The translations under genes were made by a program, and so were the position numbers. DNA of 64,000 nt. Source: Oscillospiraceae bacterium. GTDB lineage: Bacteria; Bacillota; Clostridia; UMGS1883. The first letter of the stretch is position 1. Each line of letters starts with the position of its first letter. Positions 6,299-64,000 of this stretch are shown here, in pieces. The DNA lies in contig SVJW01000003.1 of assembly GCA_015068735.1 (NCBI GenBank), forward strand, positions 9,735 to 73,734, in the 5' to 3' direction. Under the pieces are notes generated by a model. It saw nothing but the letters and a program-made list of their open reading frames with translations, made no database searches and was not told where the DNA came from.

Positions 6299-8134
<1,836 letters not shown>

Positions 8135-8170: not shown

Positions 8171-8683
8171 TCAATTTGCTACTTTCACCATACTGTGACG
8201 GATAACTCTGTCACCGATTTTGTAGCCTTTCTGGAATTCTTCAACGATTGTATTCTCCCCTGCTTCTTCATCGTCAACGTGCATTACTGCATTGTGAAGC
8301 TCTGGATTAAATTCTTCACCCACTGCCTTGATTTCTTCAACGCCTAAAGCGGCAAACACTTCGTCCATCTGCTTTTTCAGCATTACAACGCCCTCGTAAA
8401 AGCCGTCTTTATTTTCTGCCGAATCAATGGCACGCTGGAAATTGTCTATAACAGGCAGAAATTTTTCAACCACAACTGCCTTTGCTTCGGGATATATGCT
8501 TTCTTTCTCTTTAATAGTACGCTTGCGGTAGTTATCATATTCTGCAAGAGTACGCATATATTTTTCATTTACATCGTTATACTTTTTTTCAAACTCGTTT
8601 TCGGGAGTTTCTTCCGTAACCTCGGGGGCTACTTCTTCTTTAACTTCCTCTATAACTTCTTCTTTTTTCTTTTTAGTTGCCAT
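8171..8683 (-). CDS. grpE: Nucleotide exchange factor GrpE
   Basis: Acidic N-terminus and a GrpE C-terminal beta domain (GYKIGDRVIRHSMVKV). The start MATKKKK follows an AAAGGA SD and overlaps the hrcA 3' end by 11 nt. Confidence 0.9.
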   Translation of the reverse strand: MATKKKKEEVIEEVKEEVAPEVTEETPENEFEKKYNDVNEKYMRTLAEYDNYRKRTIKEKESIYPEAKAVVVEKFLPVIDNFQRAIDSAENKDGFYEGVVMLKKQMDEVFAALGVEEIKAVGEEFNPELHNAVMHVDDEEAGENTIVEEFQKGYKIGDRVIRHSMVKVAN

Positions 8684-9731
8684 CTGTATCATCCTTTCCG
8701 TAGATCATTCTTCCAAGTATCTCGCTAAGCTGACTGTTTATTAGCTCCAGAGAGGATACCACCCTTGCGTAATTCATACGCTTAGGGCCGATAATGCCTA
8801 TTTTTCCGTGAAGCTTACCGCCCACGTTATAATTTGCCACAACAAGACTTGTGTCGCGCATTTCCGGAACAGCATTTTCACTACCGATTTTTATGCTGAT
8901 ACTATTGCCTGCCTCTTCCGGAAGATTAAGCATCTGTGACACGTTTTCTTTCCTGTCAATAAAGGAGAAGAATTCTCTTGCTCTCTCAATATTTTCAAAT
9001 TCAGGGTTATTGAGGATGTTGGAAGCTCCTCCGATGTACACTCTTTTTTGTGTATTACCGAGACAATCCAGAACAAACTCTATTACTGTTTTCAGGAAAT
9101 CCCCGTAATTGCTCATTGCCTCGTAAATCAGCATAAGCCGTGCAGGAGTAAAATCGTCTGCCGAAAGCCCTGTAAGCTGTCCCGACAAAAATTCCGATAT
9201 AGAATCGATGATTTCGTAATCAATATCATCACTTACATTCATATGGCGGTTTCTTACCACGCCTGCATCAGTTACTACCACAATAAGCACACTACCCTGT
9301 TCAATAAGCATCATTTTAACGCTTCTTAAGCGGCTTTTCTGTGCGGTGGGAAGCTCCACAATTGCAGGATAATTTGTCGCCTTGGAAAGAATGTCGGAAA
9401 TTTCGGACACCACATTTTCAAGTTGGCTGTACTTTCTGTCCATACTGCTCTGCAAACTCGTAATTTCCTCCATGGTAAGGCTATAACGGTGCATCAGCGA
9501 GTCTACATAGAAACGATATCCCATTTCTGAGGGAATACGTCCTGCGGAGGTATGTGGCTTATCAAGGTAGCCCATTTCCTCCAGGTCTGCCATTTCGTTA
9601 CGGATTGTTGCAGCAGAAAGACCCAGGTCGTGATTTTTTGCAATGTTTCGTGAGCCTACAGGCTCAGCCGTCTGAATATAATCTTCAATAATGGCTTGAA
9701 GTATTGCTCTTTTTCTTTCGGAAAGCTCCAT
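8673..9731 (-). CDS. hrcA: Heat-inducible transcription repressor HrcA
   Basis: The N-terminal winged HTH (LSERKRAILQAIIEDYIQTAEPVGSR) is typical of HrcA. It is the first gene of the hrcA-grpE-dnaK-dnaJ operon and has a CIRCE element upstream. Confidence 0.95.
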   Translation of the reverse strand: MELSERKRAILQAIIEDYIQTAEPVGSRNIAKNHDLGLSAATIRNEMADLEEMGYLDKPHTSAGRIPSEMGYRFYVDSLMHRYSLTMEEITSLQSSMDRKYSQLENVVSEISDILSKATNYPAIVELPTAQKSRLRSVKMMLIEQGSVLIVVVTDAGVVRNRHMNVSDDIDYEIIDSISEFLSGQLTGLSADDFTPARLMLIYEAMSNYGDFLKTVIEFVLDCLGNTQKRVYIGGASNILNNPEFENIERAREFFSFIDRKENVSQMLNLPEEAGNSISIKIGSENAVPEMRDTSLVVANYNVGGKLHGKIGIIGPKRMNYARVVSSLELINSQLSEILGRMIYGKDDTDGN

Positions 9732-9752
9732 ATGCTCACCTCTTTTCGTTTG

Positions 9753-9779
9753 TTAGCACTCGCTTTCTTCGAGTGCTAA
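9753..9779 (-). promoter_or_regulatory. CIRCE operator (HrcA binding site)
   Basis: Exact consensus TTAGCACTC-N9-GAGTGCTAA, 21 nt upstream of the hrcA ATG. Confidence 0.95.
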
Positions 9780-9783
9780 CAAT

Positions 9784-9812
9784 AATGTACCACTATCTAT
9801 GCCGAAAGTCAA
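9784..9812 (-). promoter_or_regulatory. SigA-type promoter of the hrcA operon
   Basis: On the minus strand: TTGACT, 17 nt, TACATT. CIRCE begins 4 nt downstream of the -10 box. Confidence 0.6.
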
Positions 9813-9850
9813 GTATTATTTACTATTATTTCTAATTTATTCATATTTAA

Positions 9851-9886
9851 ACCAAAAAAGGAACTCTCCCATATGGAGAGTTCCTT
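9851..9886 (-). terminator. Rho-independent terminator downstream of thrS
   Basis: 12-bp stem AAGGAACTCTCC/GGAGAGTTCCTT, followed on the minus strand by TTTTTTGG. Confidence 0.75.
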
Positions 9887-9906
9887 CCTTCATTTTGCAT
9901 TATGTA

Positions 9907-9941
9907 TGAGACACATTGGGGACAGTCCCCAATGTGTCTCA
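9907..9941. repeat. REP-like 35-nt palindrome, copy 1
   Basis: TGAGACACATTGGGGACAGTCCCCAATGTGTCTCA, identical to the copies at 12027-12061 and 12878-12912. Confidence 0.9.
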
Positions 9942-9971
9942 AAACTCCTGATATTACAAAAAAACCTATCC

Positions 9972-11726
9972 TTATTTAATTACCTTATTACTAACTTCCT
10001 CAGTAATCTTTGCAATAAATTCTTCAATAGACATACTGCCGATGTCACCGTCACGACGGTCACGGACAGAAACAGTGTTGTTCTCGATATCCTTATCACC
10101 AACAAGAATCATATAAGGAACTTTTTCAAGCTGAGCCTCACGAATCTTGTAACCGATTTTTTCGCTTCTGTCGTCGATTTCGATACGGATGATACCGCTT
10201 TCTTCAAGCTTTCTCTTAACTTCATAGATATAGTCAAGGTGACGGTCAGCAATGGGAAGAAGTTTAACCTGAACAGGTGCAAGCCATACGGGGAACGCGC
10301 CTGCGTACTTTTCAATGAGAAGTGCAAGAGTTCTCTCGTAGCAACCGATGGATGTTCTGTGGATGATATAGGGGTTCTTCTTCACGCCATCCTTATCCAC
10401 ATATTCCATACCGAACTGCTGAGCAAGCATCTGGTCAATCTGAATTGTGCTAAGAGTATCTTCTTTACCGAATACGTTCTTGATCTGAATATCAAGCTTA
10501 GGTCCGTAGAATGCAGCTTCGCCAATACCAACCTTGTAGGGGATCTCCAGATTGTTAAGGATTTTCTCCATCATACCCTGAGCTTCATCCCACTGTTCGG
10601 GAGTACCGATATACTTGTCGCGGTCGTTAGGATCCCACTGCGAGAAACGGTAGGAAACATCCTCGTAAAGACCGAGAGTTTTAAGCATATAGATTGCAAG
10701 CTCCAGGCTGCCTCTGAATTCGTCCTCCAACTGCTCGGGAGTACACATAAGGTGGCCCTCAGAAATAGTAAACTGTCTTACGCGGATAAGCCCGTGCATT
10801 TCGCCGGAAGCCTCGTTACGGAAAAGAGTAGAGGTTTCGTTAAGACGCATGGGAAGGTCACGGTAACTTCTGCCACGATTAAGGAATGCCTGATACTGGA
10901 AAGGACAAGTCATGGGACGAAGTGCAAATACTTCCTTATCCTTTTCTTCATCGCCAAGAACGAACATACCGTCCTGATAATGGTCCCAATGTCCGGAAAT
11001 CTTGTAAAGGTCGCTCTTCGCCATAAGGGGAGTCTTGGTAAGCATCCAACCCCTCTTCTGCTCTTCATCCTCAACAAATCTCTGAAGAAGCTGAATAATT
11101 CTTGCGCCCTTGGGAAGAAGAATGGGAAGTCCCTGACCGATTACATCACTTGTTGTGAAAAGTTCAAGTTCACGACCGAGCTTGTTATGGTCACGTTTCT
11201 TAGCTTCTTCTCTCTGCTGGAGGTCTGCTTCAAGCTCATCCTTTGTAAGGAAAGCAGTTGCATAAATACGCTGAAGCATCTTGTTCTTTTCGTCGCCTCT
11301 CCAATAAGCGCCTGTTGCACTGAGGAGCTTGTACGCCTTAACCTTGCTTGTGTAGTTCACGTGAGGACCTGCACAAAGGTCTGTAAATTCGCCCTGTTTG
11401 TAGAAAGAAATCGTTTCTCCCTCGGGAAGGTCATTGATAAGCTCAACCTTATAAGGCTCGTCCTTCATAAGTTCGAGAGCTTCTTCTCTGGGAAGTTCAA
11501 AACGCTCAATCTTGAGGTTTTCTTTTGCAATTTTTTTCATTTCCGCTTCGATTTTCTCCAAATCTTCGGGAGTGAAGGGATGGGGAGTGTCGAAGTCATA
11601 GTAAAAGCCGTTTTCGATAGCAGGACCTATCGCAAGCTTTACTTCGGGGAAAAGTCTTTTTACAGCCTGCGCCATAACGTGTGACGCAGAGTGTCTTAAG
11701 GTTTGCAGTTCGTTCATTTCTGCCAT
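9972..11726 (-). CDS. thrS: Threonine--tRNA ligase (short form, no N-terminal TGS domain)
   Basis: The protein begins MAEMNELQTLRHSASHVMAQAV, i.e. directly at the HxxxH editing/SAD region, and then shows class II core motifs. A T-box leader lies upstream. Confidence 0.92.
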   Translation of the reverse strand: MAEMNELQTLRHSASHVMAQAVKRLFPEVKLAIGPAIENGFYYDFDTPHPFTPEDLEKIEAEMKKIAKENLKIERFELPREEALELMKDEPYKVELINDLPEGETISFYKQGEFTDLCAGPHVNYTSKVKAYKLLSATGAYWRGDEKNKMLQRIYATAFLTKDELEADLQQREEAKKRDHNKLGRELELFTTSDVIGQGLPILLPKGARIIQLLQRFVEDEEQKRGWMLTKTPLMAKSDLYKISGHWDHYQDGMFVLGDEEKDKEVFALRPMTCPFQYQAFLNRGRSYRDLPMRLNETSTLFRNEASGEMHGLIRVRQFTISEGHLMCTPEQLEDEFRGSLELAIYMLKTLGLYEDVSYRFSQWDPNDRDKYIGTPEQWDEAQGMMEKILNNLEIPYKVGIGEAAFYGPKLDIQIKNVFGKEDTLSTIQIDQMLAQQFGMEYVDKDGVKKNPYIIHRTSIGCYERTLALLIEKYAGAFPVWLAPVQVKLLPIADRHLDYIYEVKRKLEESGIIRIEIDDRSEKIGYKIREAQLEKVPYMILVGDKDIENNTVSVRDRRDGDIGSMSIEEFIAKITEEVSNKVIK

Positions 11727-23662: not shown

Positions 23663-23739
23663 GTGCTTGTAGCTCAGTTGGATAGAGTATTTGGCTACGA
23701 ACCAAAGGGTCAGGGGTTCGAATCCCTTCAAGCACGCCA
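23663..23739 (+). tRNA. tRNA-Arg (anticodon ACG), CCA encoded
   Basis: Manual cloverleaf: acceptor GTGCTTG/CAAGCAC, D-arm GCTC..GAGT, anticodon stem TTTGG/CCAAA with loop CTACGAA, T-arm AGGGG-TTCGAAT-CCCTT, discriminator G, then CCA. Confidence 0.92.
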
Positions 23740-23742
23740 AAA
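23722..23742 (+). repeat. att-like direct repeat, copy 1 (3' end of tRNA-Arg)
   Basis: ATCCCTTCAAGCACGCCAAAA is repeated exactly at 23926-23946. Confidence 0.8.
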
Positions 23743-23782
23743 AGAACAGGTATTTACTTTAGTGAATATCTGTTCTTTTTTT
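23743..23782 (+). terminator. Terminator after tRNA-Arg
   Basis: Stem AGAACAG..CTGTTCT followed by TTTTTT. Confidence 0.65.
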
Positions 23783-23925
23783 GTTTATTTTCAAGGGGAT
23801 TCGAACCCTGAGAGGGCAACGAGCGTTAAAAAAACGATTGGCAATCGTTTTTAGCGAAGTTGATGCGAAGACGGGTACTGCACATTTATGTGCGGTCGTC
23901 GAGCAAGGCGATGCGCAGCAACGCT

Positions 23926-23946
23926 ATCCCTTCAAGCACGCCAAAA
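23926..23946 (+). repeat. att-like direct repeat, copy 2 (orphan duplicate of the tRNA-Arg 3' end)
   Basis: Exact 21-nt copy located 204 nt downstream of copy 1, followed by its own hairpin terminator. Confidence 0.8.
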
Positions 23947-23948
23947 GA

Positions 23949-23981
23949 AATCGCTTAACCATTAGGGTTAAGCGATTTTTA
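23949..23981 (+). terminator. Hairpin terminator after the duplicated tRNA 3' end
   Basis: AATCGCTTAACC-ATTAG-GGTTAAGCGATT followed by TTT. Confidence 0.6.
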
Positions 23982-24144
23982 TTATGTCTTCAATTTTTCT
24001 AAAAAAGTGTGCTTTCTAACAATTTTCTAACAAATTTCCGAAAGAGTGTTTTTTACTCTGTTTTAAGGTGTTTTTCACGCAAATAATTGAATTTTGCTTT
24101 AATATGTGGTAAAATTCTATCAAGACATTATTGGAGGACTTATT

Positions 24145-24528
24145 ATGGATAATAATGATAAGATTCAGATATTTGAAGATAAAAAAATCCGAACCGCATG
24201 GAACGAAGAAACCGAAGAATGGTATTTTTCAGTTGTTGATGTGGTATCTGTTTTAACAGATAGCAAAGATCCAACAGCATATTGGAGAAAGCTGAAACAG
24301 AGATTAAAAGCCGAAGGAAATGAAACCGTGACAAATTGTCACGGTTTGAAGATGACTGCAACTGATGGCAAAAAAAGACTTACCGATGTAGCTGATACTG
24401 AACAGTTACTCCGCATCATTCAGTCTATCCCCTCACTAAAAGCAGAACCATTTAAGATGTGGCTCGCTCAAGTTGGAAGAGAAAGAATAGAAGAAATAAA
24501 CAATCTGTATACATTTCAGGAGGGGTGA
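24145..24528 (+). CDS. Bro-N domain protein (phage antirepressor-like), apparently C-terminally truncated
   Basis: IRTAWNEETEEWYFSVVDVVSVLTDS..YWRKLKQRLKAEGNETVTNCHGLKM..KAEPFKMWLAQVGRERIEE matches the conserved Bro-N core. It ends at 127 aa, where I recall family members usually continuing. A GGAGG SD lies upstream. Confidence 0.7.
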   Translation: MDNNDKIQIFEDKKIRTAWNEETEEWYFSVVDVVSVLTDSKDPTAYWRKLKQRLKAEGNETVTNCHGLKMTATDGKKRLTDVADTEQLLRIIQSIPSLKAEPFKMWLAQVGRERIEEINNLYTFQEG

Positions 24529-24532
24529 TTCT

Positions 24533-24697
24533 ATGTCTGAAATTCATTTCGAATCTTCTTTGACAATAGAAGAAATAGACAGTAATTTTGAAAACATCGA
24601 CCTGTTTTCCGGGATTATGGAAGGATTAAACGAAGCCCTTGCTTATGAAAAAGACAAGGTTTTCAGAGAAACCCATACCAACAAAACATATAACTGA
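24533..24697 (+). CDS. Small hypothetical protein (54 aa), possibly an antitoxin/HTH-partner fragment
   Basis: ATG 6 nt after an AGGAGGGG SD. Translation is MSEIHFESSLTIEEIDSNFENIDLFSGIMEGLNEALAYEKDK... It was too short for the ORF track. Confidence 0.35.
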   Translation: MSEIHFESSLTIEEIDSNFENIDLFSGIMEGLNEALAYEKDKVFRETHTNKTYN

Positions 24698-24711
24698 GCC
24701 ATAAAAACATC

Positions 24712-24735
24712 CCGCCCTACGTGTTTGCAGGGCGG
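24712..24735. terminator. GC-rich hairpin (likely a terminator for the minus-strand remnant genes)
   Basis: CCGCCCT..AGGGCGG, followed on the minus strand by ATGTTTTTAT. Confidence 0.5.
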
Positions 24736-24837
24736 AATTACTATATCCGGAATATAACTATAATAAATTCTCAAGCAGCTGACCGAGCTTTCTCTTATAT
24801 TCCATACTAAGGTTCCGTGTTTCATTTTGTTTCCTCC

Positions 24838-25423
24838 TCAGTATTCGTAGTTCATTAGCATAGTTGAGTGTGTGTTATCGTCAATTACAAAGACCTTTCC
24901 TGTAGTAATTGGCGTTATGTTTAACACATACTCTTTTTCATATTCAGGCTCTTCCTGAGTATGAATGATTAGTTGTTTTCCATCTTTTTCAGACAAAGAA
25001 AAAACCTGTAGATAGTCTGAGCCAAAACAATCAACAACGCAGGCGCCTTAAGCGGTGAGATTTCGGCATCTTACGGCTTGTCGTCTTTATAAGGCACAAA
25101 GCCTTATTTCATCCTCCGCACCGAAATCTGTTCAAAATCTCTTACGTTTAAGGTCGAAGAATTTTAGAATAGCAGATTTTTGTTTCTGCAAGGCAAAAGC
25201 GGAGCAAATATTTTCTCATATTTGCGAGCATTTTAACACAGCAGAGGCGGAAATCCGCATTATAAAATCGTCTTCGTCGTTAATTGTTTTGGCTCTCTAC
25301 AGGCAGATTGTGTATCATCTCCCACATAAGTAGTTGGAGTGAGATGGGAATCTCTTCCTCTACACCTCGTGTTATGAATTTTTGATTGTTAAATATATCA
25401 ACACCTCCGATATACAGTTTCAT
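24838..25423 (-). pseudogene. DUF960-like gene disrupted by a 277-bp insertion
   Basis: The minus-strand N-terminal part (25423-25296) reads ..FNNQKFITRGVEEEIPISLQLLMWEMIHNLPVE. The C-terminal part (25018-24838) reads DYLQVFSLSEKDGKQLIIHTQEEPEYEKEYVLNITPITTGKVFVIDDNTHSTMLMNYEY*. Removing 25019-25295 restores one frame (PVEDYLQVF). The codon in the SD-appropriate position is ATA. Confidence 0.55.
25019..25295. mobile_element. MITE-like non-autonomous insertion with ~21-bp terminal inverted repeats and a highly structured interior
   Basis: The ends are GAGCCAAAACAATCAACAACG and CGTCGTTAATTGTTTTGGCTC. Internal nested stems include CCTTAA/TTAAGG, AGATTTCGG/CCGAAATCT, ATAAGGC/GCCTTAT and GCAAATAT/ATATTTGC. 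There is no credible ORF inside. Confidence 0.6.
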
Positions 25424-25515
25424 AGATATGATATATATTTTCAGAGGATTAGAAACCGAATAAAAAGGAAAAACAACAACATTTAAATATACTAACTGAA
25501 AGGAGTTGTTGCATC

Positions 25516-25710
25516 ATGTTTCAAAACGATTATGATGTACTGACGGCATACGAAGCTATGGATTATTTAGGTATTGGAGAAAACTCAATATATCGTCTTT
25601 TAAAAAGCGGTGAATTAGGGGCTTTCTGCATAGGAAGAACGTGGAAGATTCCCCGAAAAGAATTAGATAAATACATAGATAAAAGTGTAAGCAAAAATTT
25701 GAAAGGATGA
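25516..25710 (+). CDS. Excisionase-family / MerR-like HTH DNA-binding protein
   Basis: 64 aa. YEAMDYLGIGENSIYRLLKSGELGAFCIGRTWKIPRKELDKYI is the typical Xis-type HTH pattern. An AAGGAG SD lies upstream. Confidence 0.7.
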   Translation: MFQNDYDVLTAYEAMDYLGIGENSIYRLLKSGELGAFCIGRTWKIPRKELDKYIDKSVSKNLKG

Positions 25711-25759
25711 TATATGTATATATAAGTTATTGAATCTTATATGTAAAAACGCAAAGTAA

Positions 25760-25786
25760 AGAGGACTTCCGCTATGGAAGTCCTCT
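25760..25786. terminator. Bidirectional hairpin terminator
   Basis: AGAGGACTTCC-GCTAT-GGAAGTCCTCT, located between the convergent xis-like and DUF4340 genes. Confidence 0.65.
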
Positions 25787-25796
25787 GTTCTTTGTC

Positions 25797-27149
25797 CTAT
25801 TTAAGTTTTGTTAAAATATTATCCAGACTTTTTGTGAGGACAAGACAAGTCATACCGTTATCAGCTTTTACAATACTGTAACGATCATTGTAAATGTAGT
25901 ATGCAAAGTCCTTCTTTGTTCCGTCATTAAAATGGAAAGTGAAAGTGCATTTTTCTGTTCCTGTTGCCGCATCATTTGTAAAATCTGCTGCTGTAACACC
26001 AATTATAAGCTGGTATAACTCTTTAAAATCTGCCTCGGTCACGGTTTCTCCGTCAACCTTATAACCACCCCCGTCTTTTACATTTAACAGGGTGTGCTCT
26101 TCTCCGTCTGCCGTAATTACTATTTTTCCCACCGTTTTGATGTTAAAAAGCTGTATAAATTTTTCAACATACTCCTCTACCTTAACATCCTTTACGATTT
26201 CGTAAAACGGACATTGTGCAAGATATACTACGGGAGTATCGTTACACATAAGATAAACATTACCGTTTTCGCCGTAGTTTCCCATTTTTACGGTCGTTTT
26301 CGTTCCCTTATTGTCTGTAATTTCAAGCTCGTAGGGTTTATCAAGACCATACAAAGAAAGATTCTTAGGGTTTTCCTCAACAATACTGTCTGCGATAAGG
26401 GGTGTGATAGACTCAAAAAGAGGCTTAAGCTTATCCAAAGATGCAATTACATTATCATAGGGATAGGTTATCAGATATGACGCTAACACATACTCATTTG
26501 TTGGTACAAAATTTTCATCGTACTTTACGCTTAATTCCTTTTGACCTTTCTTTTTAATTGTAAAAGACATTGTACTGTCAGCACTAAGTGTACAGATATC
26601 CGTACTACGCATTTCAGATGGGTCTTTTATAAGATTTTCCACGTCATAAGAAGATAATGTAAACACGCTGTCTACACCCTCAAGCATAGCGTAGTACTCA
26701 CCGTCAAAATTTGTGTTGTTTCCTATGAGAAGATTGTACTCAGTTCCGTCATTCATCAGGACAGCAACACTTTTTTTGGTGTTTTCCAATCCGTAATCGG
26801 AGAGATTTCCTGTATAATCTTTCATTCTGCGACTTATTGTAACAGAGCTTACGTTATAAAATACAGATGACAGCTTGTAAGAATCCATTATATGACTGGA
26901 GTAGCCTTCAATTGTAACAGTCTCACCGTTTTTTACTGTATAGGAAGTCTCCCCTGTACTGATTTTTACAGACGCAATATCTCCGGAATTAATATCCATA
27001 GCGTACTCTATGTTTGTATCCGGAACGACAGGCACATTGTCCTGTTCTTTTTTTATATCAGGATCCCATTTTTGAATGAAAAAATATCCACCCAACAGGA
27101 GAATCAGAACCAGAGACGATGCTATGATTATTTTAATATTTCGTTTCAT
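25797..27149 (-). CDS. DUF4340-domain protein (N-terminal membrane anchor)
   Basis: 450 aa with a single N-terminal TM segment and a beta-rich remainder. Its position directly after a GldG-like gene is the usual DUF4340 context. Confidence 0.6.
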   Translation of the reverse strand: MKRNIKIIIASSLVLILLLGGYFFIQKWDPDIKKEQDNVPVVPDTNIEYAMDINSGDIASVKISTGETSYTVKNGETVTIEGYSSHIMDSYKLSSVFYNVSSVTISRRMKDYTGNLSDYGLENTKKSVAVLMNDGTEYNLLIGNNTNFDGEYYAMLEGVDSVFTLSSYDVENLIKDPSEMRSTDICTLSADSTMSFTIKKKGQKELSVKYDENFVPTNEYVLASYLITYPYDNVIASLDKLKPLFESITPLIADSIVEENPKNLSLYGLDKPYELEITDNKGTKTTVKMGNYGENGNVYLMCNDTPVVYLAQCPFYEIVKDVKVEEYVEKFIQLFNIKTVGKIVITADGEEHTLLNVKDGGGYKVDGETVTEADFKELYQLIIGVTAADFTNDAATGTEKCTFTFHFNDGTKKDFAYYIYNDRYSIVKADNGMTCLVLTKSLDNILTKLK

Positions 27150-57286: not shown

Positions 57287-58306
57287 TTACATCATTTTCT
57301 TTACCGTATCTCCCTCTATCAGGTAAGGTTCAAGAAGGAGTCTTGTTTTTGGGGGATCTTCTGTCCCTTTAAGTCTTTTTATAAGAAGCTCCCCTACCTG
57401 CTTCCCTATATGTTCTTCAGGTTGGTAGACTGTAGTTATTATCCGCTTTCTGTCATCGTTAAAATTATGAATATCAAAGCCTACCACGGACAAATCCTCC
57501 GGTACCCGAAGCCCCTTTTCCCTGATAGCCTTCAAAGCTCCGTACGTCATCTTTTCAGAAGTTACATACACCGCGGAGAAGTCAATTTTTTCTCTTTTTT
57601 CAAGAAGCTTTTTCATAGCTTCATATCCGGATTCCATTTTATAGTCACCGTAGAAAACAAGATTTTCGTCATAGCTAATACCGTTCTGCAAAAGAGCCTG
57701 CTTGTAGCCTTCCAGACGTTCTATACCGGTTGTCTCCGTTTTTGAACCTATAATCGTAGCGATATTTTTATGTCCTGCTAAAATAAGGTGCTCCGTAGCA
57801 ATACGACTTGCCTTCATATTATCCACAGTTATAACATCAATATCGTTAAGAAGCGGAATATTATCTATAAAAACTACAGGGGTTTGAGACGAAAGAAAAG
57901 GTGCTGCCGCTTCTCCGGTACAATCTACCGTTGCCAAAACCAATGCATCTACACGCCGACGGTAAAGTCGCTCTACGTATTTCTTTTCTTTTTCGGCTTT
58001 TTCATGGGAATCGGCAATAATTATCATATAACCGTACTTAACCATTACCTCTTCAAGCCCTTTTACAATCTTTGCAAAAAAGTTTTCCGAAATATCTGGC
58101 AAAACAACGGCAATTGTTTCTGTGGACGATTTCTGAAGCGACCTTGCAACCTCGTTGGGAACATAGTCAAGCTTTTTCGCCATTTCAAGAACTTTTTTCC
58201 TTGTTTCTTCCTTTACTACGCTTTTACCGTTCAATGCACGGGAAACAGTAGAAACGGAAATTCCCATTTCTTTCGCTATGTATTTTAAAGTGCTGTTTCC
58301 TTTCAT
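57287..58306 (-). CDS. LacI-family transcriptional regulator
   Basis: N-terminal HTH LKYIAKEMGISVSTVSRALNG plus a periplasmic-binding-protein-like core. The start was chosen at MKGNST, after a GAGGG SD. Confidence 0.9.
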   Translation of the reverse strand: MKGNSTLKYIAKEMGISVSTVSRALNGKSVVKEETRKKVLEMAKKLDYVPNEVARSLQKSSTETIAVVLPDISENFFAKIVKGLEEVMVKYGYMIIIADSHEKAEKEKKYVERLYRRRVDALVLATVDCTGEAAAPFLSSQTPVVFIDNIPLLNDIDVITVDNMKASRIATEHLILAGHKNIATIIGSKTETTGIERLEGYKQALLQNGISYDENLVFYGDYKMESGYEAMKKLLEKREKIDFSAVYVTSEKMTYGALKAIREKGLRVPEDLSVVGFDIHNFNDDRKRIITTVYQPEEHIGKQVGELLIKRLKGTEDPPKTRLLLEPYLIEGDTVKKMM

Positions 58307-58323
58307 TGCATTTTCGCCCTCTT

Positions 58324-58338
58324 TTGCAAACGTTTGTA
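58324..58338. promoter_or_regulatory. Second LacI-type operator (autoregulatory position)
   Basis: TTGCAAACGTTTGTA, 18 nt upstream of the lacI-like ATG, with one mismatch to the 57218 site. Confidence 0.6.
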
Positions 58339-58518
58339 TTTTGATTTTACATCGTTCTTTTTTCTTTGTCAAGTTTTTTTATTTAATTTTAAAATCATAT
58401 AACATAATTATAATAATGATTTACAATCCTCTCGCAGGAAAGATAATGTTTATATAAGCTTGGGAGTGAATGGATAACGGATCAATAAACATAAATTATA
58501 TATGAATACAAAATTATA

Positions 58519-59025
58519 TTGGGCAGAAAAGGCATCCAGACGGACATTACCATAAGTTTTGAAAAATCTGATTTTCCTCATCTTATAGGGCTTCATAAAC
58601 TCACAGATGTTTTAACCGGAGATATAGCAACAGAAAAGATTTTTGATAAATGTCTAAGCAGAAAAATTTCGTATGACACGATATCTAAAAGTGCATTCTT
58701 CACGAAATTAGGTAATCGTTTTGAATATTTTAATAGGCTTGAGGAGATTCTTGATAGCAATGATATAATATTCAAATGCAACACTAAAAGCATGTCGGCT
58801 TATTCTAAAATAAAAGCTGATTTTGGTTTAAAAAACATATTGGAGGAACTCACTTTCTATTTGTTCATTCAAAAAAGAAGTTCTTCCGAAAAGCAATTCT
58901 GTAAATCATTTATTCAAGAAGATATTATTGACTATACATACGGACAAACAAGAATGACGCTCTTATACAAAGAAAAAATAAATAAAAAAACCGGTGATAA
59001 TGTTATTCAGTACAATCGGTTATAG
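58519..59025 (+). pseudogene. PBECR-like (Barnase/EndoU/ColicinE5-D/RelE-type) nuclease domain gene, probably 5'-truncated
   Basis: ITISFEKSDFPHLIGLHKLTD resembles the PBECR4-type core as I recall it. The frame opens only 8 codons upstream of a TTG, with no in-frame ATG or SD. An out-of-frame ATG at 58502 gives only 17 codons. Confidence 0.45.
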
Positions 59026-59055: not shown

Positions 59056-59075
59056 TTGCCACAAATTTGTCACAA
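59056..59075 (+). repeat. Iteron-like direct repeat pair TTGCCACAAA-TTTGTCACAA
   Basis: Two TTGYCACAA half-sites 11 nt apart. The whole 20-mer recurs at 59270-59289 with one change. Confidence 0.6.
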
Positions 59076-59228
59076 CAAAATATTAAAAATTGCAAAAATC
59101 ACACACTTTATGGCAAAAAAATAAACAGTAAGTTATACAAAACCTACTGTTTTAGCCGTTTTCAGGCGTTTTTAACGATATTTGACGCTCTCTATAGAAC
59201 TCAAAGAGATAAAGACTTTGTATCAAAA

Positions 59229-59262
59229 ATCCCACAACCACGCGGTTTGTGGGATTTTTTTT
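59229..59262 (+). terminator. Orphan rho-independent terminator in the cargo intergenic region
   Basis: ATCCCACAACC..GGTTTGTGGGAT followed by TTTTTTTT, about 200 nt from the nearest upstream gene end. Confidence 0.6.
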
Positions 59263-59269
59263 ACCCATT

Positions 59270-59289
59270 TTGCCACAAATTTGCCACAA
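59270..59289 (+). repeat. Iteron-like direct repeat pair TTGCCACAAA-TTTGCCACAA
   Basis: Second copy, lying a few tens of nt upstream of the putative promoter (TTTACA, 18 nt, TATAAT) of the large gene. Confidence 0.6.
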
Positions 59290-59443
59290 GTGGGTGAAAT
59301 TTTTACATATTTACATTTGTCATAACATATATTTATAATTAGATACGTAAAGTTATCTTTTATAAAAAATTGGCGAATTTTGGCATAAAAAATTGAAGTA
59401 TGGAGGTGTTTATGTTATAATGACATTAGAGGTGATGATTCAG

Positions 59444-61555
59444 ATGCAAAATCCTAATGCATTAATAGCTATGGCACAAGTTAGTGGTAGTTCAAATAAT
59501 CCATACTCCGTTTTTTGTGAATACATAAAATATTGTATGGCTATTAATCCTACCGAGTTAATGACAATAACAGAACTAATTAACTCTATAAGCGATCAAT
59601 TTGGAATTCATTTGCCATACAATGTTACCTTGCAATGTATGCAAATACTTAGTAAATTTGGGTATGTTAGTATTCAGAACAAATGCTATCATAGAGACGG
59701 TGATTTCGATATTAGAGCATTTGAAAAGGAACGTGACGACTATAGAAGCGTTGAAAACACCTTGATAAGCGGATTGATTGAATATGGTAATAGATACGGC
59801 CATACTTGGACCACTGACGAGGCTCGAAAACTTCTCATAAGTGTGTTAGATAGAAGAGGTATTGCTTTTGATATTTTTCTTAAAAACGATGTATCGGAAG
59901 AAATTACCGATGTCGAGTTGCTCGAAGCAGAAGACATTGAAATCATAGAAGATAATGACATCGAAAACGATAATTCTCGAATGGAGCAAATTAATAATCA
60001 ACCAATTTATGAAGATTTATTCTTTGTAGGAAAGTTTATACAGGCAACACTTAATACTCAAGGCTCTATGAGAGACTATCTGATTAAAGTCTGTCAAGGA
60101 TTGATGCTTTGTTCTGCTGCCTATCAATTACCTTCGTCAGATTCAGGTGTAGTCTTTGATTCAATTACGGATACTAGTTTTTTCTTTGACACAAAACTTT
60201 TATTAAGATTCTTGGGCTGTGCTGGACAAGCAGCAGTTGAAGCCGCAAAAGAATTGGTAGATCTTATTCAAACCAATGGTGGAAAAATATATTATTATGC
60301 CCAAACTTTAGAAGAAATGAACCGAGCATTTGAAAAAGCAATACGCAGTTTACAAAAGAATCAGCCTCCATATGACGAAGATATGCGTTTATTTGCGTTA
60401 AAAAACAAAAACAGCATTGATGTTCTTTATTCTAAAAAAACAACTATTGAAAAAGAACTTTCATCGCACAAAATATTTAAGAGAGCCAACGAAACCTTTG
60501 ACGAAAAATCAAGATTACAATTTGGTTTTGACCGATTAGATTTGCAACAATACATGCAAACACATTTGTCTTGGGAACCGAAAACAGTTGAAAACGATGC
60601 CTTAGCAATATGGGAAACCCATATGAAACGCAGCGGAAACTATAGTGAATATTGTGGAACTAAAGACAAATTACCCGTTTTTGTTACCACTAACACAAAA
60701 TTGATAGGGATCGTATTAAGTTACAAGGAAAACCGAGCAAACACAACGAATCTTCATGGTTGGAAGTCGAATCGCTTGCCTGTTATTTCAGATGTCAGAT
60801 TAACTTGTAGATTGTGGAATCCTTCTATGAACCAAGAAAGACTACCTGTATTATATTTAACAGCCAATGCTGTTGCAGCACAACGTCCAACTCAAAAATA
60901 TATAAATAGGATAAAAGATGTTGTTGAACAGATACAAAAATCCACACCAGAATATTCTTCAATATGTTTGGCAGCTTATTTCGATGATAAAGTAACAGAT
61001 ACCATTTTAAATGCAACTGTTGGACTAGAAGAAAATTTTGAAATCGGCAAATTAGCGTCAACAATTGACGAGGTTATTGAATTCAAAGCACGCGAACAAG
61101 AAAAAGAAACAGCAAAATATAAACAAGAATGTGATGTTTTGACAAAGGAAAGAGAAGTCGCAAGGCAAAAAACAATTGACGGTGCTGTTTCATCTCACAT
61201 TGATCATCTTGGAATCAAAGGTTTTTTTCTATGGTTAACACTACATTGGGATACCATTTTTATGTGTGTTTTTTTAATAATATCTGCACTCGCATCTTTT
61301 CTTGACAAATTAATAACCGGCGTCCTGCTTTTTGTTGTAGTATTAATTATTCAGTCAATAGAAAAATTTGCTCTTTCCAATTGGCTAAAGAAAAAAATTT
61401 TAAATTTGGTTTTAAATAGTACAAAAGAAACTTACAAAAATAAAATCTCTAAAAATCTTCGAGGCAACGAACTAAATTTCAAAGATGAAATTATTAGTCA
61501 ATGTATAGAAAGAACAAAACTTTTCAAAAAATGTGAAGATGTTTTAAACAAATAG
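59444..61555 (+). CDS. Large orphan protein: N-terminal wHTH-like region, PIN-like nuclease-fold domain, coiled coil, two C-terminal TM helices
   Basis: The ORF is open from 59393. The start was chosen at MQNPN, 8 nt after a GAGGTGA SD. PIN-like blocks are TSFFFDTKLLLRFLG, YYAQTLEEMNRAF, ENDALAIWETHM and LPVFVTTNTKLIG. The TM segments are FFLWLTLHWDTIFMCVFLIISALASFL and GVLLFVVVLIIQSI. No Walker A motif was seen. Confidence 0.6.
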   Translation: MQNPNALIAMAQVSGSSNNPYSVFCEYIKYCMAINPTELMTITELINSISDQFGIHLPYNVTLQCMQILSKFGYVSIQNKCYHRDGDFDIRAFEKERDDYRSVENTLISGLIEYGNRYGHTWTTDEARKLLISVLDRRGIAFDIFLKNDVSEEITDVELLEAEDIEIIEDNDIENDNSRMEQINNQPIYEDLFFVGKFIQATLNTQGSMRDYLIKVCQGLMLCSAAYQLPSSDSGVVFDSITDTSFFFDTKLLLRFLGCAGQAAVEAAKELVDLIQTNGGKIYYYAQTLEEMNRAFEKAIRSLQKNQPPYDEDMRLFALKNKNSIDVLYSKKTTIEKELSSHKIFKRANETFDEKSRLQFGFDRLDLQQYMQTHLSWEPKTVENDALAIWETHMKRSGNYSEYCGTKDKLPVFVTTNTKLIGIVLSYKENRANTTNLHGWKSNRLPVISDVRLTCRLWNPSMNQERLPVLYLTANAVAAQRPTQKYINRIKDVVEQIQKSTPEYSSICLAAYFDDKVTDTILNATVGLEENFEIGKLASTIDEVIEFKAREQEKETAKYKQECDVLTKEREVARQKTIDGAVSSHIDHLGIKGFFLWLTLHWDTIFMCVFLIISALASFLDKLITGVLLFVVVLIIQSIEKFALSNWLKKKILNLVLNSTKETYKNKISKNLRGNELNFKDEIISQCIERTKLFKKCEDVLNK

Positions 61556-61706: not shown

Positions 61707-61741
61707 GAGGTATCTCCCCTGTGGAGATACCTCTGTTTTAT
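61707..61741. terminator. Bidirectional terminator (11-bp GC-containing stem)
   Basis: GAGGTATCTCC-CCTGT-GGAGATACCTC, with T-rich tracts on both strands. It lies between the convergent large gene and the integrase. Confidence 0.7.
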
Positions 61742-61825
61742 TGCCTTTACCTTGTATTATTGAATTCAAAAACACATAGACAGAACCCGTTTTCGTTCAG
61801 ATGTTTTCAACTTTGCTGACAATTA

Positions 61826-61876
61826 TTTAAAGTATACTTATAATTTTCGACGCAATTATTGTAAGTATACTTTAAA
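61826..61876. promoter_or_regulatory. Perfect 15-bp inverted repeat (two AAGTATACTT palindromic cores 33 bp apart) next to the integrase 3' end
   Basis: TTTAAAGTATACTTA, 21 nt, TAAGTATACTTTAAA. Each arm is preceded by AATTATT. Confidence 0.5.
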
Positions 61877-61899
61877 TTTTAGAATTATCTACCTATAAT

Positions 61900-63078
61900 T
61901 TACCCAAACAAAGCGCTTGATACCGTTTTTGCCATTCTTATTTTAACCTCGGCGTACATATGGGCGTACACTCGGGATGTGATGTCCGAACTTGCATGTC
62001 CGAGATGGGCGGATATGTTCTCAATATCCTCTCCGGAGAAAAGAAGCAATGCCGCATTGGTGTGCCTTAGGCCGTGGATAGTCAGATTGTTTTCAAGGTT
62101 TAACTCCTCCCTGTGTTTCTTGACAAATCGCCTGAACTGATCGTTAAGCAGGCTTCGGTCGTACCAATGGCCTGTACAACTTGTAAACACCAATTCCGGA
62201 TGTTGCCATGCTGCACCCACGATTTCTTTCTGTTTATCCTGTTCCTCCTTCTGTTTTTTTAAAATCCCTATAGCCTTATCATCTATGGCTATAGTCCTTG
62301 TACTCCTTTCTGTTTTTGGTGTAGAAAGAAACCATTCATTCTCCGCATAGGATAATGTTTTATCAATAAAAATAGTCTTGTTTTGGAAATTTATTGAACT
62401 CCATCGGAGACCGAGGCATTCCCCAGAGCGCATTCCCGTCAGCAACAGCAATTTCACTATTGTATTAAATACGCTATATTCCTCGAGCAATAACATTAGC
62501 TTTTGCGATTGCTGTAGGTTTAATACATTCTCTATCTTTCCATACTCCCTTTCTGTACTTTCCTTCCATATTGCTCCACTACAGGGATTTTCTTTTATGT
62601 ATTTTTGACTTACCGCGTATTTCAATATACTGTGAAATACGATTTTTATCTTATTTGCGGTCAAAGGCTTACACTTAAGCCCCGTAAGGAAAGCTGATAC
62701 ATCGGATGTTTCAATATCCTTAAGTTTCCTGTTTCCGAATACCGGTGCGATATGGTTTTTTACGTTTGATTTATAGTTTTCTATCGTAACTCTTTTGAGT
62801 TTATTCGGAGCGTACTCCGCAAAATAAATCTCACACAACTGGTTAAATCGCATATTTTCACCAAAAGATTTATTTCCTCTGGCTTTGCAAGCAAACTCTA
62901 TATAAGCTTCCATAGCCAGTCTGTCAGCCTTGGTTTCGGAGACTCCTTCCGGAGCAGTAAAGGTTCCGTAATGACGGATATGCTTCCCTGCTCCATCGTA
63001 GCCTGCTGACACATTAAATTCATATGTATTGCCCCTTTTTCTGATTCCGGGAGCAACCTTCCTTATTTCCTGTGCCAT
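61900..63078 (-). CDS. Tyrosine-type site-specific integrase
   Basis: 392 aa. The catalytic R..HxxR..H..Y pattern is present in TGMRSGE, HGLRHTNA, LGHAS and VYAHMY. An N-terminal SAM-like arm/core-binding region is present. Confidence 0.92.
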   Translation of the reverse strand: MAQEIRKVAPGIRKRGNTYEFNVSAGYDGAGKHIRHYGTFTAPEGVSETKADRLAMEAYIEFACKARGNKSFGENMRFNQLCEIYFAEYAPNKLKRVTIENYKSNVKNHIAPVFGNRKLKDIETSDVSAFLTGLKCKPLTANKIKIVFHSILKYAVSQKYIKENPCSGAIWKESTEREYGKIENVLNLQQSQKLMLLLEEYSVFNTIVKLLLLTGMRSGECLGLRWSSINFQNKTIFIDKTLSYAENEWFLSTPKTERSTRTIAIDDKAIGILKKQKEEQDKQKEIVGAAWQHPELVFTSCTGHWYDRSLLNDQFRRFVKKHREELNLENNLTIHGLRHTNAALLLFSGEDIENISAHLGHASSDITSRVYAHMYAEVKIRMAKTVSSALFG

Positions 63079-63090
63079 TGCGAGTCCCCC

Positions 63091-63276
63091 TTATGCTGTT
63101 ACGGTCAATGTTCTCAGATAATCACATAAATTATCAAAGTTTATAAGAGCCTTTTTCCCTGAATACACCGCTTGTATCTGTCCATTACGGAGCATTACTC
63201 TTATTGTATTCTCGGGAAGAAGTCCCGTTTTTGCTATCTGTCTTACTGTCATCATTTTTGGCATTGTTTTTTCCAT
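63091..63276 (-). CDS. Excisionase-like HTH protein
   Basis: 61 aa. MTVRQIAKTGLLPENTIRVMLRNGQIQAVYSGKKALINFDNL is the Xis/AlpA-type HTH pattern. It lies directly upstream of int. Confidence 0.7.
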   Translation of the reverse strand: MEKTMPKMMTVRQIAKTGLLPENTIRVMLRNGQIQAVYSGKKALINFDNLCDYLRTLTVTA

Positions 63277-63415: not shown

Positions 63416-64000
63416 TTACTTCAGTTTGATACCAAGGTACTTTCTCGATATCTTATCCTTGCCTCGCTTATAGCCACGAGCAGCAAAGTCCTTTCCAAAT
63501 TTCGTCTCACTCATGGCGGTAAGAAAGTTGTCAGAACAGAAGTCAATATATGCTTCATACAATATCCTGGCTCTGATCTCTCCACCTTTTTCCTCCTTGA
63601 TGCAAGCCTCGATGAACGAACCAAGCGTATCCTGTGACTTACGATACTTTTTTGTCGCTTTCTCCACTGCCTCACAAGAACCCAGCCCATCTGCATAGTA
63701 CTTCATAGCTCCTTTAACCAAAAAGGCAAGTACTCCCGCTCGTTCTTGCTTCAATTCATTAAGCAAGTTTTTGTTCAGTTTGTTTTTAGAAACTGTATAT
63801 TCAAAAGGAATGACACGAATTCTTCTCCATATTCCATGGTCAGTCCCGGTAATAATAGGAAGATAATTAGTATCAATCAGCAACTTGAACTCCGGATTAA
63901 ACGTAAAGGCCATCTTATAAAGCTGCCTTGCTGACAGGGTCTCCCCACTTGACATGATCTTAATTTTTCCTTCGTTAAGGACATCCGTACAATTTAATTC
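63416..64000 (-). CDS. Phage/plasmid primase, P4-family C-terminal domain (5' part outside the window)
   Basis: The frame is open to the window edge. LSARQLYKMAFTFNPEFKLLIDTNYLPIITGTDHGIWRRIRVIPF is the conserved P4/D5-type C-terminal block. Confidence 0.8.
   Translation of the reverse strand, partial: ELNCTDVLNEGKIKIMSSGETLSARQLYKMAFTFNPEFKLLIDTNYLPIITGTDHGIWRRIRVIPFEYTVSKNKLNKNLLNELKQERAGVLAFLVKGAMKYYADGLGSCEAVEKATKKYRKSQDTLGSFIEACIKEEKGGEIRARILYEAYIDFCSDNFLTAMSETKFGKDFAARGYKRGKDKISRKYLGIKLK

Follow-up and report, generated by a model that had tools for sequence, protein, structure and literature searches.

A large family of probable membrane-anchored PIN-like nucleases carried as mobile-element cargo, with a possible role in anti-phage defence

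Introduction

VapC-type PIN toxins, superinfection-exclusion proteins of phages and single-protein abortive-infection systems are the described systems closest to a gene that we analysed in a 64,000-nucleotide stretch of DNA (hereafter, the window) from an Oscillospiraceae bacterium (GTDB lineage Bacteria; Bacillota; Clostridia; UMGS1883; GenBank assembly GCA_015068735.1, contig SVJW01000003.1, positions 9,735 to 73,734, forward strand). The gene (hereafter, the target gene) lies at 59420..61555 on the plus strand and encodes a protein of about 700 residues, in which a winged helix-turn-helix (wHTH) domain, an acidic linker, an enlarged PIN-like domain, a coiled coil and two hydrophobic helices are predicted.

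The best structural neighbours of the core domain of this protein are VapC-type PIN toxins (Pfam PF01850 and PF13470), for example, those of Mycobacterium tuberculosis (Protein Data Bank [PDB] entry 7vwo), Pyrococcus horikoshii (VapC4, 5h4h) and Pyrobaculum aerophilum (PAE0151, 2fe1). The order of the characteristic residues is shared with these toxins: an Asp-Thr pair ends strand 1, a Glu starts the helix after strand 2, an Asp lies on a later helix and a T-x-N motif follows strand 4. However, the target domain spans about 270 residues and is embedded in a protein of about 700 residues that also comprises winged-helix, coiled-coil and membrane-hairpin regions. Nor does the locus have the layout of a type II VapBC module, given that the protein comprises several domains within some 700 residues, no antitoxin gene adjoins the target gene and no partner is conserved across the contexts surveyed.

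Superinfection-exclusion (Sie) and other accessory ('moron') genes include those for lactococcal Sie2009, Streptococcus thermophilus Ltp and the Z/fun, old and tin genes of phage P2. The target resembles them as a single, sporadically distributed accessory gene with its own promoter, located beside an integrase or at the P2 Z/fun position and encoding a predicted membrane-associated protein, but it has no sequence or fold relationship to those proteins. To our knowledge, the known Sie proteins are small and lack a nuclease domain, in contrast to the target protein. A similar likeness exists to the single-protein systems exemplified by the Abi proteins of Lactococcus and the PD-type systems of Escherichia coli prophages, in that the target gene is solitary, low in GC relative to its surroundings, borne by mobile elements and found beside defence systems; the difference is that no PADLOC v2.0.0 model matches any of the members tested. 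Finally, FEN/Exo1 5'-nucleases, HARP and PRORP share the core fold and are among the top 40 structural matches of the target, although Exo1 and FEN1 reach Foldseek probabilities of 0.4-0.84 and template modelling scores (TM-scores) of only 0.14-0.21. More generally, membrane proteins are often used as effectors by defence systems (PMC9122126).

The gene and its family

The gene and its start are as follows.

59420..61555, plus strand: coding sequence of the wHTH, PIN-like, coiled-coil and two-membrane-helix protein; 711 amino acids (aa), or 703 aa from ATG 59444
59428..59446, plus strand: Shine-Dalgarno sequence AGAGGTGA and the most likely start codon, ATG 59444 (from the sequence and homolog starts)

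The open reading frame (ORF) is intact, extending over 59393..61555 on the plus strand (720 codons when counted from TTG 59393) with the stop codon ending at 61555; TTG 59393 is only the mechanical start, that is, the first possible start codon of the frame. The most likely start is ATG 59444, because the Shine-Dalgarno sequence AGAGGTGA (59428-59435) lies 8 nt ahead of it, the corresponding residue, M9, is nearly invariant among the homologs, several of which start there, and the 100%-identity matches of a word-indexed search include a 703-aa product consistent with this start. An exact-sequence look-up of the 703-aa product returned no record. ATG 59420, yielding 711 aa, is possibly an alternative start, and all residue numbers given here are counted from it. 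With about 700 codons in DNA of 33% GC and 295 full-length relatives, the reality of the ORF is far beyond chance. The first-pass annotation, which was made from the sequence alone, described a large gene with its own promoter-like and Shine-Dalgarno signals in AT-rich DNA, and this description holds: GC content is 0.30-0.35 across 58.5-62.0 kb compared to 0.39-0.46 in the flanks, AGAGGTGA is appropriately placed, and the promoter candidate, taken alone, is a weak point (see below).

The same annotation called the protein an orphan, which is wrong. The word-indexed search retrieved 295 relatives of the window protein, and among the 120 matches listed, nearly all align over 98% or more of the query, with identities of about 44-50%; one is 88% identical and two correspond to the window's own product. 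A HMMER profile search of 1.84 billion cluster representatives identified 1,374 clusters, defined at 50% identity, with E <= 0.001, 648 of them with E <= 1e-10. The layout of the family is constant, with a length of about 650-710 aa throughout; distant members have 630-720 aa, and their alignment spans profile positions ~190-705. Conservation is reported below for an alignment of 69 members, with pairwise identities as low as 16%. Copies in annotated genomes all carry the label 'hypothetical protein'.

No match of the window protein was found in Pfam (even at E <= 1), NCBIfam (2026) or PADLOC v2.0.0, and PHROGs yielded only noise. Likewise, tblastn searches of deposited phage genomes and PLSDB plasmids with the window protein were negative, and distant subfamily members, searched against the phage genomes and PLSDB, were matched on plasmids only. 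The clade of the window protein is patchily distributed, as only 10 loci, almost all from Clostridia, were found when clade patterns were compared with 185,579 species genomes. Literature searches for the combination of winged helix, PIN-like domain, coiled coil and two transmembrane helices, for 'PIN-TM' and for WP_010706231 returned no relevant description. Thus, the family and its architecture appear to be new, in that they are not described in the searchable literature, whereas PIN-like nuclease effectors and membrane-anchored defence proteins are already known.

The nuclease-like core

60011..60829, plus strand: enlarged PIN-like nuclease domain, residues 198-470, with D257-T258, E278, E299, D393, R404, T423, N425, D458 and W466 conserved

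We modelled residues 196-475 alone, using 34 diverse sequences, and obtained an AlphaFold model with a predicted local distance difference test (pLDDT) score of 90.4 and a predicted TM-score of 0.89, in which five beta strands alternate with helices. The top Foldseek matches in the PDB are VapC 7vwo (probability 1.00, TM-score to the target 0.55), VapC4 5h4h (0.99) and PAE0151 2fe1 (0.99), followed by other PIN-like proteins, including HARP RNase P (7og5), AF1683 (1w8i), SMG6 (2hww), PRORP and Exo1/FEN1. The PIN-like fold that the first-pass annotation had proposed thus emerged from structure prediction, with PIN-like nucleases as all of the top neighbours. The full-length model, which is of moderate quality (pLDDT 67.6), gave the same PIN matches locally, along with a phage 'PIN like domain' protein, and its confident local matches fall into two groups only, winged-helix and PIN domains.

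The motifs FFFDT, TLEE, END and VTTN, which had been picked by eye, correspond to D257-T258, E299, D393 and T423/N425, respectively, and are invariant or nearly so in the 69 members. Specifically, D257, T258, E299, D393 and W466 are invariant in 69/69, and F101, G227, G266, E278, L279, R404, F421, T423, N425, L428 and L461 are nearly invariant, with N425 retained in 68/69 members and T423 in 64/69. The occurrence of T-N in place of the usual T-D had been noted as a deviation; N425 does occupy that position, but this is not an anomaly. In the genuine VapC family that we examined, the corresponding motifs are 'MLDTN' and 'LVTNNT', so that, in the target, neither the Asp-Thr strand nor the Thr-x-Asn motif is unusual for a PIN domain. 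A fourth acidic residue may be supplied by D458, a position that is Asp or Glu in 66/69 members.

Among Pfam PIN-clan families, the window protein matched none, and matches of its relatives were below threshold: one distant member matches PIN (PF01850) at 2.8e-5, and a member from an Enterococcus faecium plasmid matches PIN_3 (PF13470) at 5.9e-4 (21.1 bits, against a cut-off of 27), with the match beginning at the beta-1 strand IYFDT. As modelled, the core belongs to the PIN-like superfamily as a divergent, enlarged form whose acidic site is apparently intact, and lies outside the existing Pfam PIN families; we infer that it has nuclease activity.

Domains flanking the core

The remainder of the protein is divided as follows.

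59444..59878, plus strand: N-terminal domain, winged helix-turn-helix with a helical extension, residues 9-153 (AlphaFold, Foldseek)
59879..60010, plus strand: disordered acidic linker, residues 154-197, net charge -13, pLDDT < 50
60830..61210, plus strand: helical region, residues 471-541, then a long coiled-coil-like helix, residues 542-597, leading toward the membrane
61211..61375, plus strand: two-helix membrane hairpin, residues 598-652 (hydropathy and AlphaFold helices 598-630 and 634-651)
61376..61555, plus strand: basic helical C-terminal tail, residues 653-711, net charge +7, and stop codon

The winged helix, acidic linker, coiled coil, two hydrophobic helices and basic tail had all been read from the sequence in the first pass and reappeared in the structural predictions and charge calculations. 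In the N-terminal block (pLDDT ~68-91), three helices (residues 28-42, 50-61 and 67-79) precede a beta-hairpin (83-92) in the AlphaFold model, and local Foldseek matches, with probabilities of 0.97-0.99, are to the winged-helix domains of IclR, Sso10a, Rok and the cullin WHB; furthermore, single family members weakly match winged-helix families in Pfam. The linker is disordered over residues 154-194 in the full-length model. Its net charge is between -6 and -14 in 31/31 close homologs but in distant members it is short and neutral, so that the acidic linker is a clade-specific addition.

Downstream of the core, a single 52-residue helix of Lys/Glu-rich composition is predicted at residues 542-593, followed by a hydrophobic span of 40-60 residues that is found at the same position in 69/69 members and in relatives from annotated genomes. 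The sequence of the membrane helices itself is not conserved and, thus, they fit an anchor better than a specific pore. Because KKK directly follows the second membrane helix, the positive-inside rule suggests a topology in which both termini are cytoplasmic (N-in/C-in). A Walker A motif was sought in the window protein and is absent, in agreement with no P-loop having been seen by eye.

Genomic contexts

We surveyed a sample of about 15 genomic contexts of the family (designated here by L numbers). No neighbouring gene is conserved across these contexts; the target homologs are solitary, and the recurrent feature is a recombinase gene. The target gene or its homolog lies close to such a gene in the window, L006, L010, L012, L022, L025 and L036. 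In L006, three genes for large serine recombinases immediately precede it; L022, where a DUF927 primase is also encoded, L025, which also has a phage capsid gene, and L036 likewise have large serine recombinases encoded immediately upstream. The proposal that the gene occupies an integrase-proximal cargo slot is strengthened by these loci, in that the gene travels with the integrase, excisionase and primase genes (int-xis-primase) in the window, L010 and L012, and related loci are almost always located beside a recombinase or its remnant. In the window, the gene is element-encoded, its product is predicted to be membrane-associated and its neighbour is an integrase gene, which is the position typical of Sie genes.

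An 89-aa ORF upstream of several homologs was considered as a partner gene and rejected, because the final 89 residues of the intact L036 serine recombinase have the same sequence; the ORF is also 93% identical to the C-terminus of the L025 serine recombinase. This remnant is found in L001-L004 (9535-9804), L037 (1841-2110) and L038 (6560-6829), where it is identical or 98% identical to the C-terminus of the L036 recombinase, and divergent or partial copies lie upstream of the homologs in L013 and L035 (950-1177), L015 and L027. In these loci the element has decayed while the gene has been kept, and the target gene therefore outlives its original carrier element. A 70-aa ORF downstream of the gene in L001-L004 was rejected as a partner as well, being a Fic remnant.

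Defence genes and toxin-antitoxin-related genes are found nearby in several of the surveyed contexts: DISARM genes (DrmE, helicase, DrmB-like and HNH) in L004; HsdR, of a type I restriction-modification system, and SMODS-SLATT in L036; SNF2, a methylase and Fic in L038; reverse transcriptase, PIN and PemK in L005; and SocA_Panacea in L006. Recurrence in defence islands and mobile-element hotspots, a hallmark of defence genes, is accordingly seen for the family in this sample. In two ~43-kb phage contigs from IMG/VR, a member of 36% identity is the last gene, after those for a helicase, an exonuclease, a single-stranded DNA-binding protein, a primase, a methyltransferase and a dUTPase.

Relatives on plasmids and in P2-like prophages

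Lone distant members of the family are encoded on plasmids of Enterococcus faecium (six), Listeria, Sporosarcina, Arthrobacter, Hymenobacter, Klebsiella and Pantoea. These plasmid relatives span four phyla, and their surroundings consist of insertion sequence (IS) elements, resolvases and resistance genes. In L032 (E. faecium pNY2032-2) and L034 (Klebsiella quasipneumoniae pKA1-2), the members are located within mosaics bounded by IS1216 or IS26 and adjoin catA, or aac(3)-IVa and aph(4)-Ia, together with small resolvase genes.

A search of 5,426 complete E. coli genomes yielded two relatives of the Klebsiella gene. The first, WP_204691543.1 (658 aa) of E. coli FDAARGOS_1337 (NZ_CP070026.1, 4009886-4011862; L040, 12001-13977), is encoded in a P2-like prophage, as the sole gene, on the opposite strand, in the interval from the tail-fibre-assembly gene to the tail-sheath gene. 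On the P2 map, the non-essential Z/fun gene sits in the G-FI interval, which we take to be the position of this relative. The second, WP_096936374.1 of E. coli MEI7BO1-21, is encoded in the ogr-D interval of a degraded P2-like prophage, beside a Hok/Gef gene (L039). Comparison of the 69-member alignment with the FDAARGOS_1337 protein using hhalign gave a probability of 100% and an E-value of 5e-45 over 510 columns, which marks it as a genuine, if distant, member, and this protein keeps the motifs IYLDS, TFDEI, HDT, FVTHN and FWL along with the coiled coil and the two C-terminal hydrophobic helices. PADLOC, NCBIfam and Pfam (above threshold) gave no match for the E. coli, Klebsiella, Enterococcus and Pantoea relatives.

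The Z/fun site has been described as a second defence-enriched locus of P2-like phages (PMC9519451). A 2026 study lists Z/fun among defence loci, too, and reports phage protection by 6 of 8 unknown genes that were picked at random from P4 hotspots (PMC13586616).

The integrative element

Around the target gene, the window contains the following features of the element and its transcription.

59204..59262, plus strand: left junction of the shared element, consisting of the last bases of an rpsI-like 3' end (AAAGAGATAA) and a terminator hairpin
within 59204..59262, plus strand: upstream terminator hairpin, stem 59238-59252 followed by a T run
59270..59289, plus strand: 20-nt motif TTGCCACAAATTTGCCACAA, composed of two TGCCACAA half-sites, upstream of the promoter candidate; conserved in L010 and L012
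59310..59339, plus strand: sigma-70-like promoter candidate TTTACA-18-TATAAT, 11/12 matches
61707..61733, both strands: bidirectional intrinsic terminator of the target gene and the convergent integrase gene, with an 11-bp stem, 6 G-C pairs and T runs on both strands
61900-63078, minus strand: tyrosine integrase (Pfam)
63091-63276, minus strand: HTH_17 excisionase-like gene (Pfam)
from 63416, minus strand: 3' (C-terminal) part of a D5_N/DUF5906/Pox_D5 primase-helicase, continuing past the window end (Pfam)

The element is shared with other loci. The 88%-identical homolog adjoins the same integrase and excisionase-like genes in two metagenomic contigs and one Clostridia metagenome-assembled genome, and DNA similarity to these loci, traced in L010 and L012, begins at window position 59200-59204 and continues, co-linear and at 85-90% identity, to the window end. 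In L012 (560-660) and L010 (1-60), the shared DNA begins in the last rpsI codons (...RRAPQFSKR*) and the element abuts an intact rpsI gene. From these alignments, the element in L012 and L010 is inserted at the 3' end of rpsI, with the target gene coming first, between the junction and int. The rpsI gene was not found in the 64-kb window and, therefore, the window copy occupies another or secondary site, or lies in a rearranged or tandem island. No convincing direct repeat that could represent attachment sites was found around the element in L012.

The window ends inside the element, so that its right end and any counterpart of the L012 cargo lie beyond position 64000. A truncation of the primase gene in the window was considered and rejected, since the frame is open up to the window end. 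The rest of the element, as seen in L012, includes a 511-aa D5_N/DUF5906/Pox_D5 primase-helicase. L012 additionally encodes a 486-aa protein with no Pfam match (6573-8033, plus strand) and a gene pair for a GATase and an Amidoligase_2 protein, the latter with a LIM-like zinc finger (8512-10560, minus strand), which are possible extra accessory cargo.

Judging from these signals, the target gene forms a transcription unit of its own, delimited by the upstream terminator, the promoter candidate and the bidirectional terminator that it shares with the convergent int gene. The promoter candidate is weak evidence when taken alone, because such sites are frequent in AT-rich DNA (28 promoter-like sites in the region versus 17.5 expected). 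L012 lacks about 155 bp (61747-61901) that, in the window, separate the bidirectional terminator from the stop codon of the integrase gene; this stretch holds two promoter-like sites on the plus strand, at 61816-61844 and 61871-61899.

A copy of the 20-nt motif, 95% identical, is present at 59056-59075, 214 bp away, outside the shared element and just after the stop codon of the PBECR4 ORF described below. The resulting direct repeat (59056-59075 and 59270-59289) reads TTGCCACAAATTTG(T/C)CACAA, and each copy contains two TG(C/T)CACAA half-sites. This repeat may serve as an operator or as an arm site for a recombinase, or it may be left over from a former tandem element.

Proposed function and alternative explanations

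We consider it quite probable that the target gene encodes a membrane-anchored protein with a functional PIN-like nuclease domain and is carried as mobile-element cargo. Whether it is a single-gene determinant against phages or mobile elements, acting by superinfection exclusion or abortive infection, is a question for which we see the case as evenly balanced, although this is the best supported of the readings compared here. The defence reading is strengthened by the context, the strongest of the functional clues, that is, by the solitary gene, the recombinase-proximal slots, the defence neighbours and the Z/fun position. With regard to the candidate defence or abortive-infection role proposed in the first-pass annotation, PADLOC did not recognise the window protein, and the neighbourhood survey of about 15 contexts revealed DISARM, HsdR with SMODS-SLATT and other defence genes.

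We infer the membrane topology, trigger, target and defence phenotype as follows. The gene would be a self-contained moron of a small integrative element, placed between the element end and the integrase gene with its own promoter and terminators, and would be expressed in the carrier cell from that promoter. The protein would face the cytoplasm, tethered to the inner membrane by its C-terminal hairpin, and would probably form a dimer or oligomer through the coiled coil. Phage injection or membrane disturbance could serve as the trigger, upon which the winged helix would engage nucleic acid and the PIN-like site would cut it. Under one option, the entering phage genome would be cut near its entry site, resulting in exclusion; under the other, an essential RNA would be cut once the enzyme is activated, resulting in VapC-like abortive infection. 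Both are possible, and the evidence cannot separate them. More speculatively, the acidic linker of this clade could mimic nucleic acid intramolecularly and thereby hold the enzyme in check.

A broader proposal, which we put forward tentatively and regard as doubtful, is that the family constitutes a widespread form of single-gene immunity of mobile elements, in which a nuclease anchored at the inner membrane face would attack phage or plasmid nucleic acid at or just after entry. The occurrence of the same architecture from integrative elements of Clostridia to Enterococcus plasmids and the Z/fun position of P2-like prophages in E. coli belongs to this proposal.

Several results weigh against a nuclease with a defence function. 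None of the Foldseek matches of the core reaches E <= 0.001 (the best is 9e-3), with TM-scores to the target of about 0.5, and the core, at ~270 residues compared to ~130-150 in a classical PIN domain, is about twice the usual size, owing to helical insertions. Searches of PDB sequences with HMMER profiles of the full-length family and of the core retrieved no PIN domain and nothing else meaningful. Similarly, hhalign comparison of the core alignment with a narrow VapC alignment, all members of which are at least 72% identical, was not significant (probability 0.3, E 0.22); the only alignment returned has the right register (D257 on D6, E299 on E42), which we do not count as evidence. Regarding defence, a PADLOC-DB v2.0.0 search with the 69 members gave only three weak, scattered matches (E >= 4e-4), and searches of 50,697 deposited phage genomes with two single-sequence queries did not retrieve the family. 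Moreover, recombinase-proximal and hotspot slots are also occupied by non-defence genes, and the support for a defence phenotype comes from context and prediction.

An alternative, which we deem unlikely, is a nuclease serving the element's own cycle or offence, by degrading nucleic acids of the host or of competitors, processing replication or packaging intermediates in the manner of FEN/Exo1, or countering host defences. The presence of Exo1, FEN1 and RNase P-type PIN-like enzymes among the structural matches could be taken to point this way, but the TM-scores of 0.14-0.21 for Exo1/FEN1 are low and VapC-type proteins match better. Linkage to primase-bearing elements and the position of the gene in phage contigs L030 and L031, on the same strand after replication, methylase and dUTPase genes, also favour such a function. 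Against this, the gene is sporadic among related elements and is kept alone in decayed ones, which is a poor fit to an essential life-cycle role; in the window it is a separate transcription unit convergent with int; and, across the family, it occurs with unrelated recombinase, replication and packaging systems, as well as on plasmids.

It also appears improbable that the gene is an addiction or stabilisation module, in which a toxin would be restrained in cis, whether through the winged helix, through the acidic linker or by sequestration at the membrane, and would penalise the loss or silencing of its element, like a fused VapBC. No labile antitoxin partner is conserved, one stable polypeptide alone cannot produce post-segregational killing, and the anchor, which is conserved in all members, has no obvious role in addiction. 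These points stand against the VapC toxins being the nearest structural neighbours, the location of the gene at integrative-element ends and, surrounded by IS elements and resolvases, on plasmids, the PemK, SocA_Panacea and Fic genes in its vicinity, and its persistence after decay of the adjacent recombinase. Furthermore, this explanation overlaps the defence reading, many toxin-antitoxin modules being defence systems, too.

A membrane-tethered regulator or sensor devoid of nuclease chemistry, with a DNA-binding winged helix of the ToxR/CadC type and a PIN-like domain that binds a ligand or protein, or with the membrane part as the effector, would accommodate the winged-helix N-terminus, the anchor, the Asn at the usual fourth acidic position and the frequency of membrane proteins among defence effectors (PMC9122126), but is very unlikely, because three acidic residues together with T258 and R404 are invariant or nearly so at PIN catalytic positions in very divergent members, which argues for retained catalysis, and because the non-conserved sequence of the membrane helices fits an anchor rather than a pore.

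If the reading as a membrane-anchored defence nuclease is correct, a function would be gained for a family of more than 1,000 clusters that is absent from Pfam, NCBIfam and PADLOC, and a new architecture would be added to anti-phage effectors, namely, a membrane-anchored PIN-like nuclease fused to a winged helix. The family is carried beside resistance genes by clinically relevant plasmids of E. faecium and Klebsiella, and by prophages and satellites of gut Clostridia, where it could shape phage susceptibility and the outcomes of phage therapy. Because a close-enough relative is encoded in a P2-like prophage of E. coli, the idea is directly testable in a standard host with standard phage panels.

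Flanking features of the window

To the left of the element, two further genes were identified.

57287-58372, minus strand: LacI-family gene, left neighbour
58519-59025, plus strand: PBECR4 (PF18813) nuclease-domain ORF (Pfam E 5e-30, profile positions 24-187 of 188)

The flanks named in the first pass, a lacI-like gene on one side and the int-xis-primase module on the other, were both recovered with Pfam. The PBECR4 ORF lacks the first ~23 profile positions, has TTG as its only start codon, with no ATG and no Shine-Dalgarno sequence, and is preceded by an in-frame stop 9 codons upstream. Its description as a truncated nuclease remnant is therefore reasonable, and it is plausibly what is left of some other gene or element. 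The ORF lies to the left of the junction, outside the DNA common to L010 and L012; being outside the element of the target gene, it tells little about cargo turnover in the target slot, which had been suggested on its account.

Beside a tRNA-Arg gene (23663-23739), the stretch 23663-25800 contains short, broken ORFs resembling a decayed mobile element. Labelled by eye or by position, these are two DUF960-like fragments, a Bro-N-like ORF of 140 aa (24106-24528) and an excisionase-like HTH ORF (25516-25710). Within this stretch, window positions 24813-25735 are 87-90% identical to L012 positions 10548-11202, the site of a DUF960 gene (Pfam E 2e-27).

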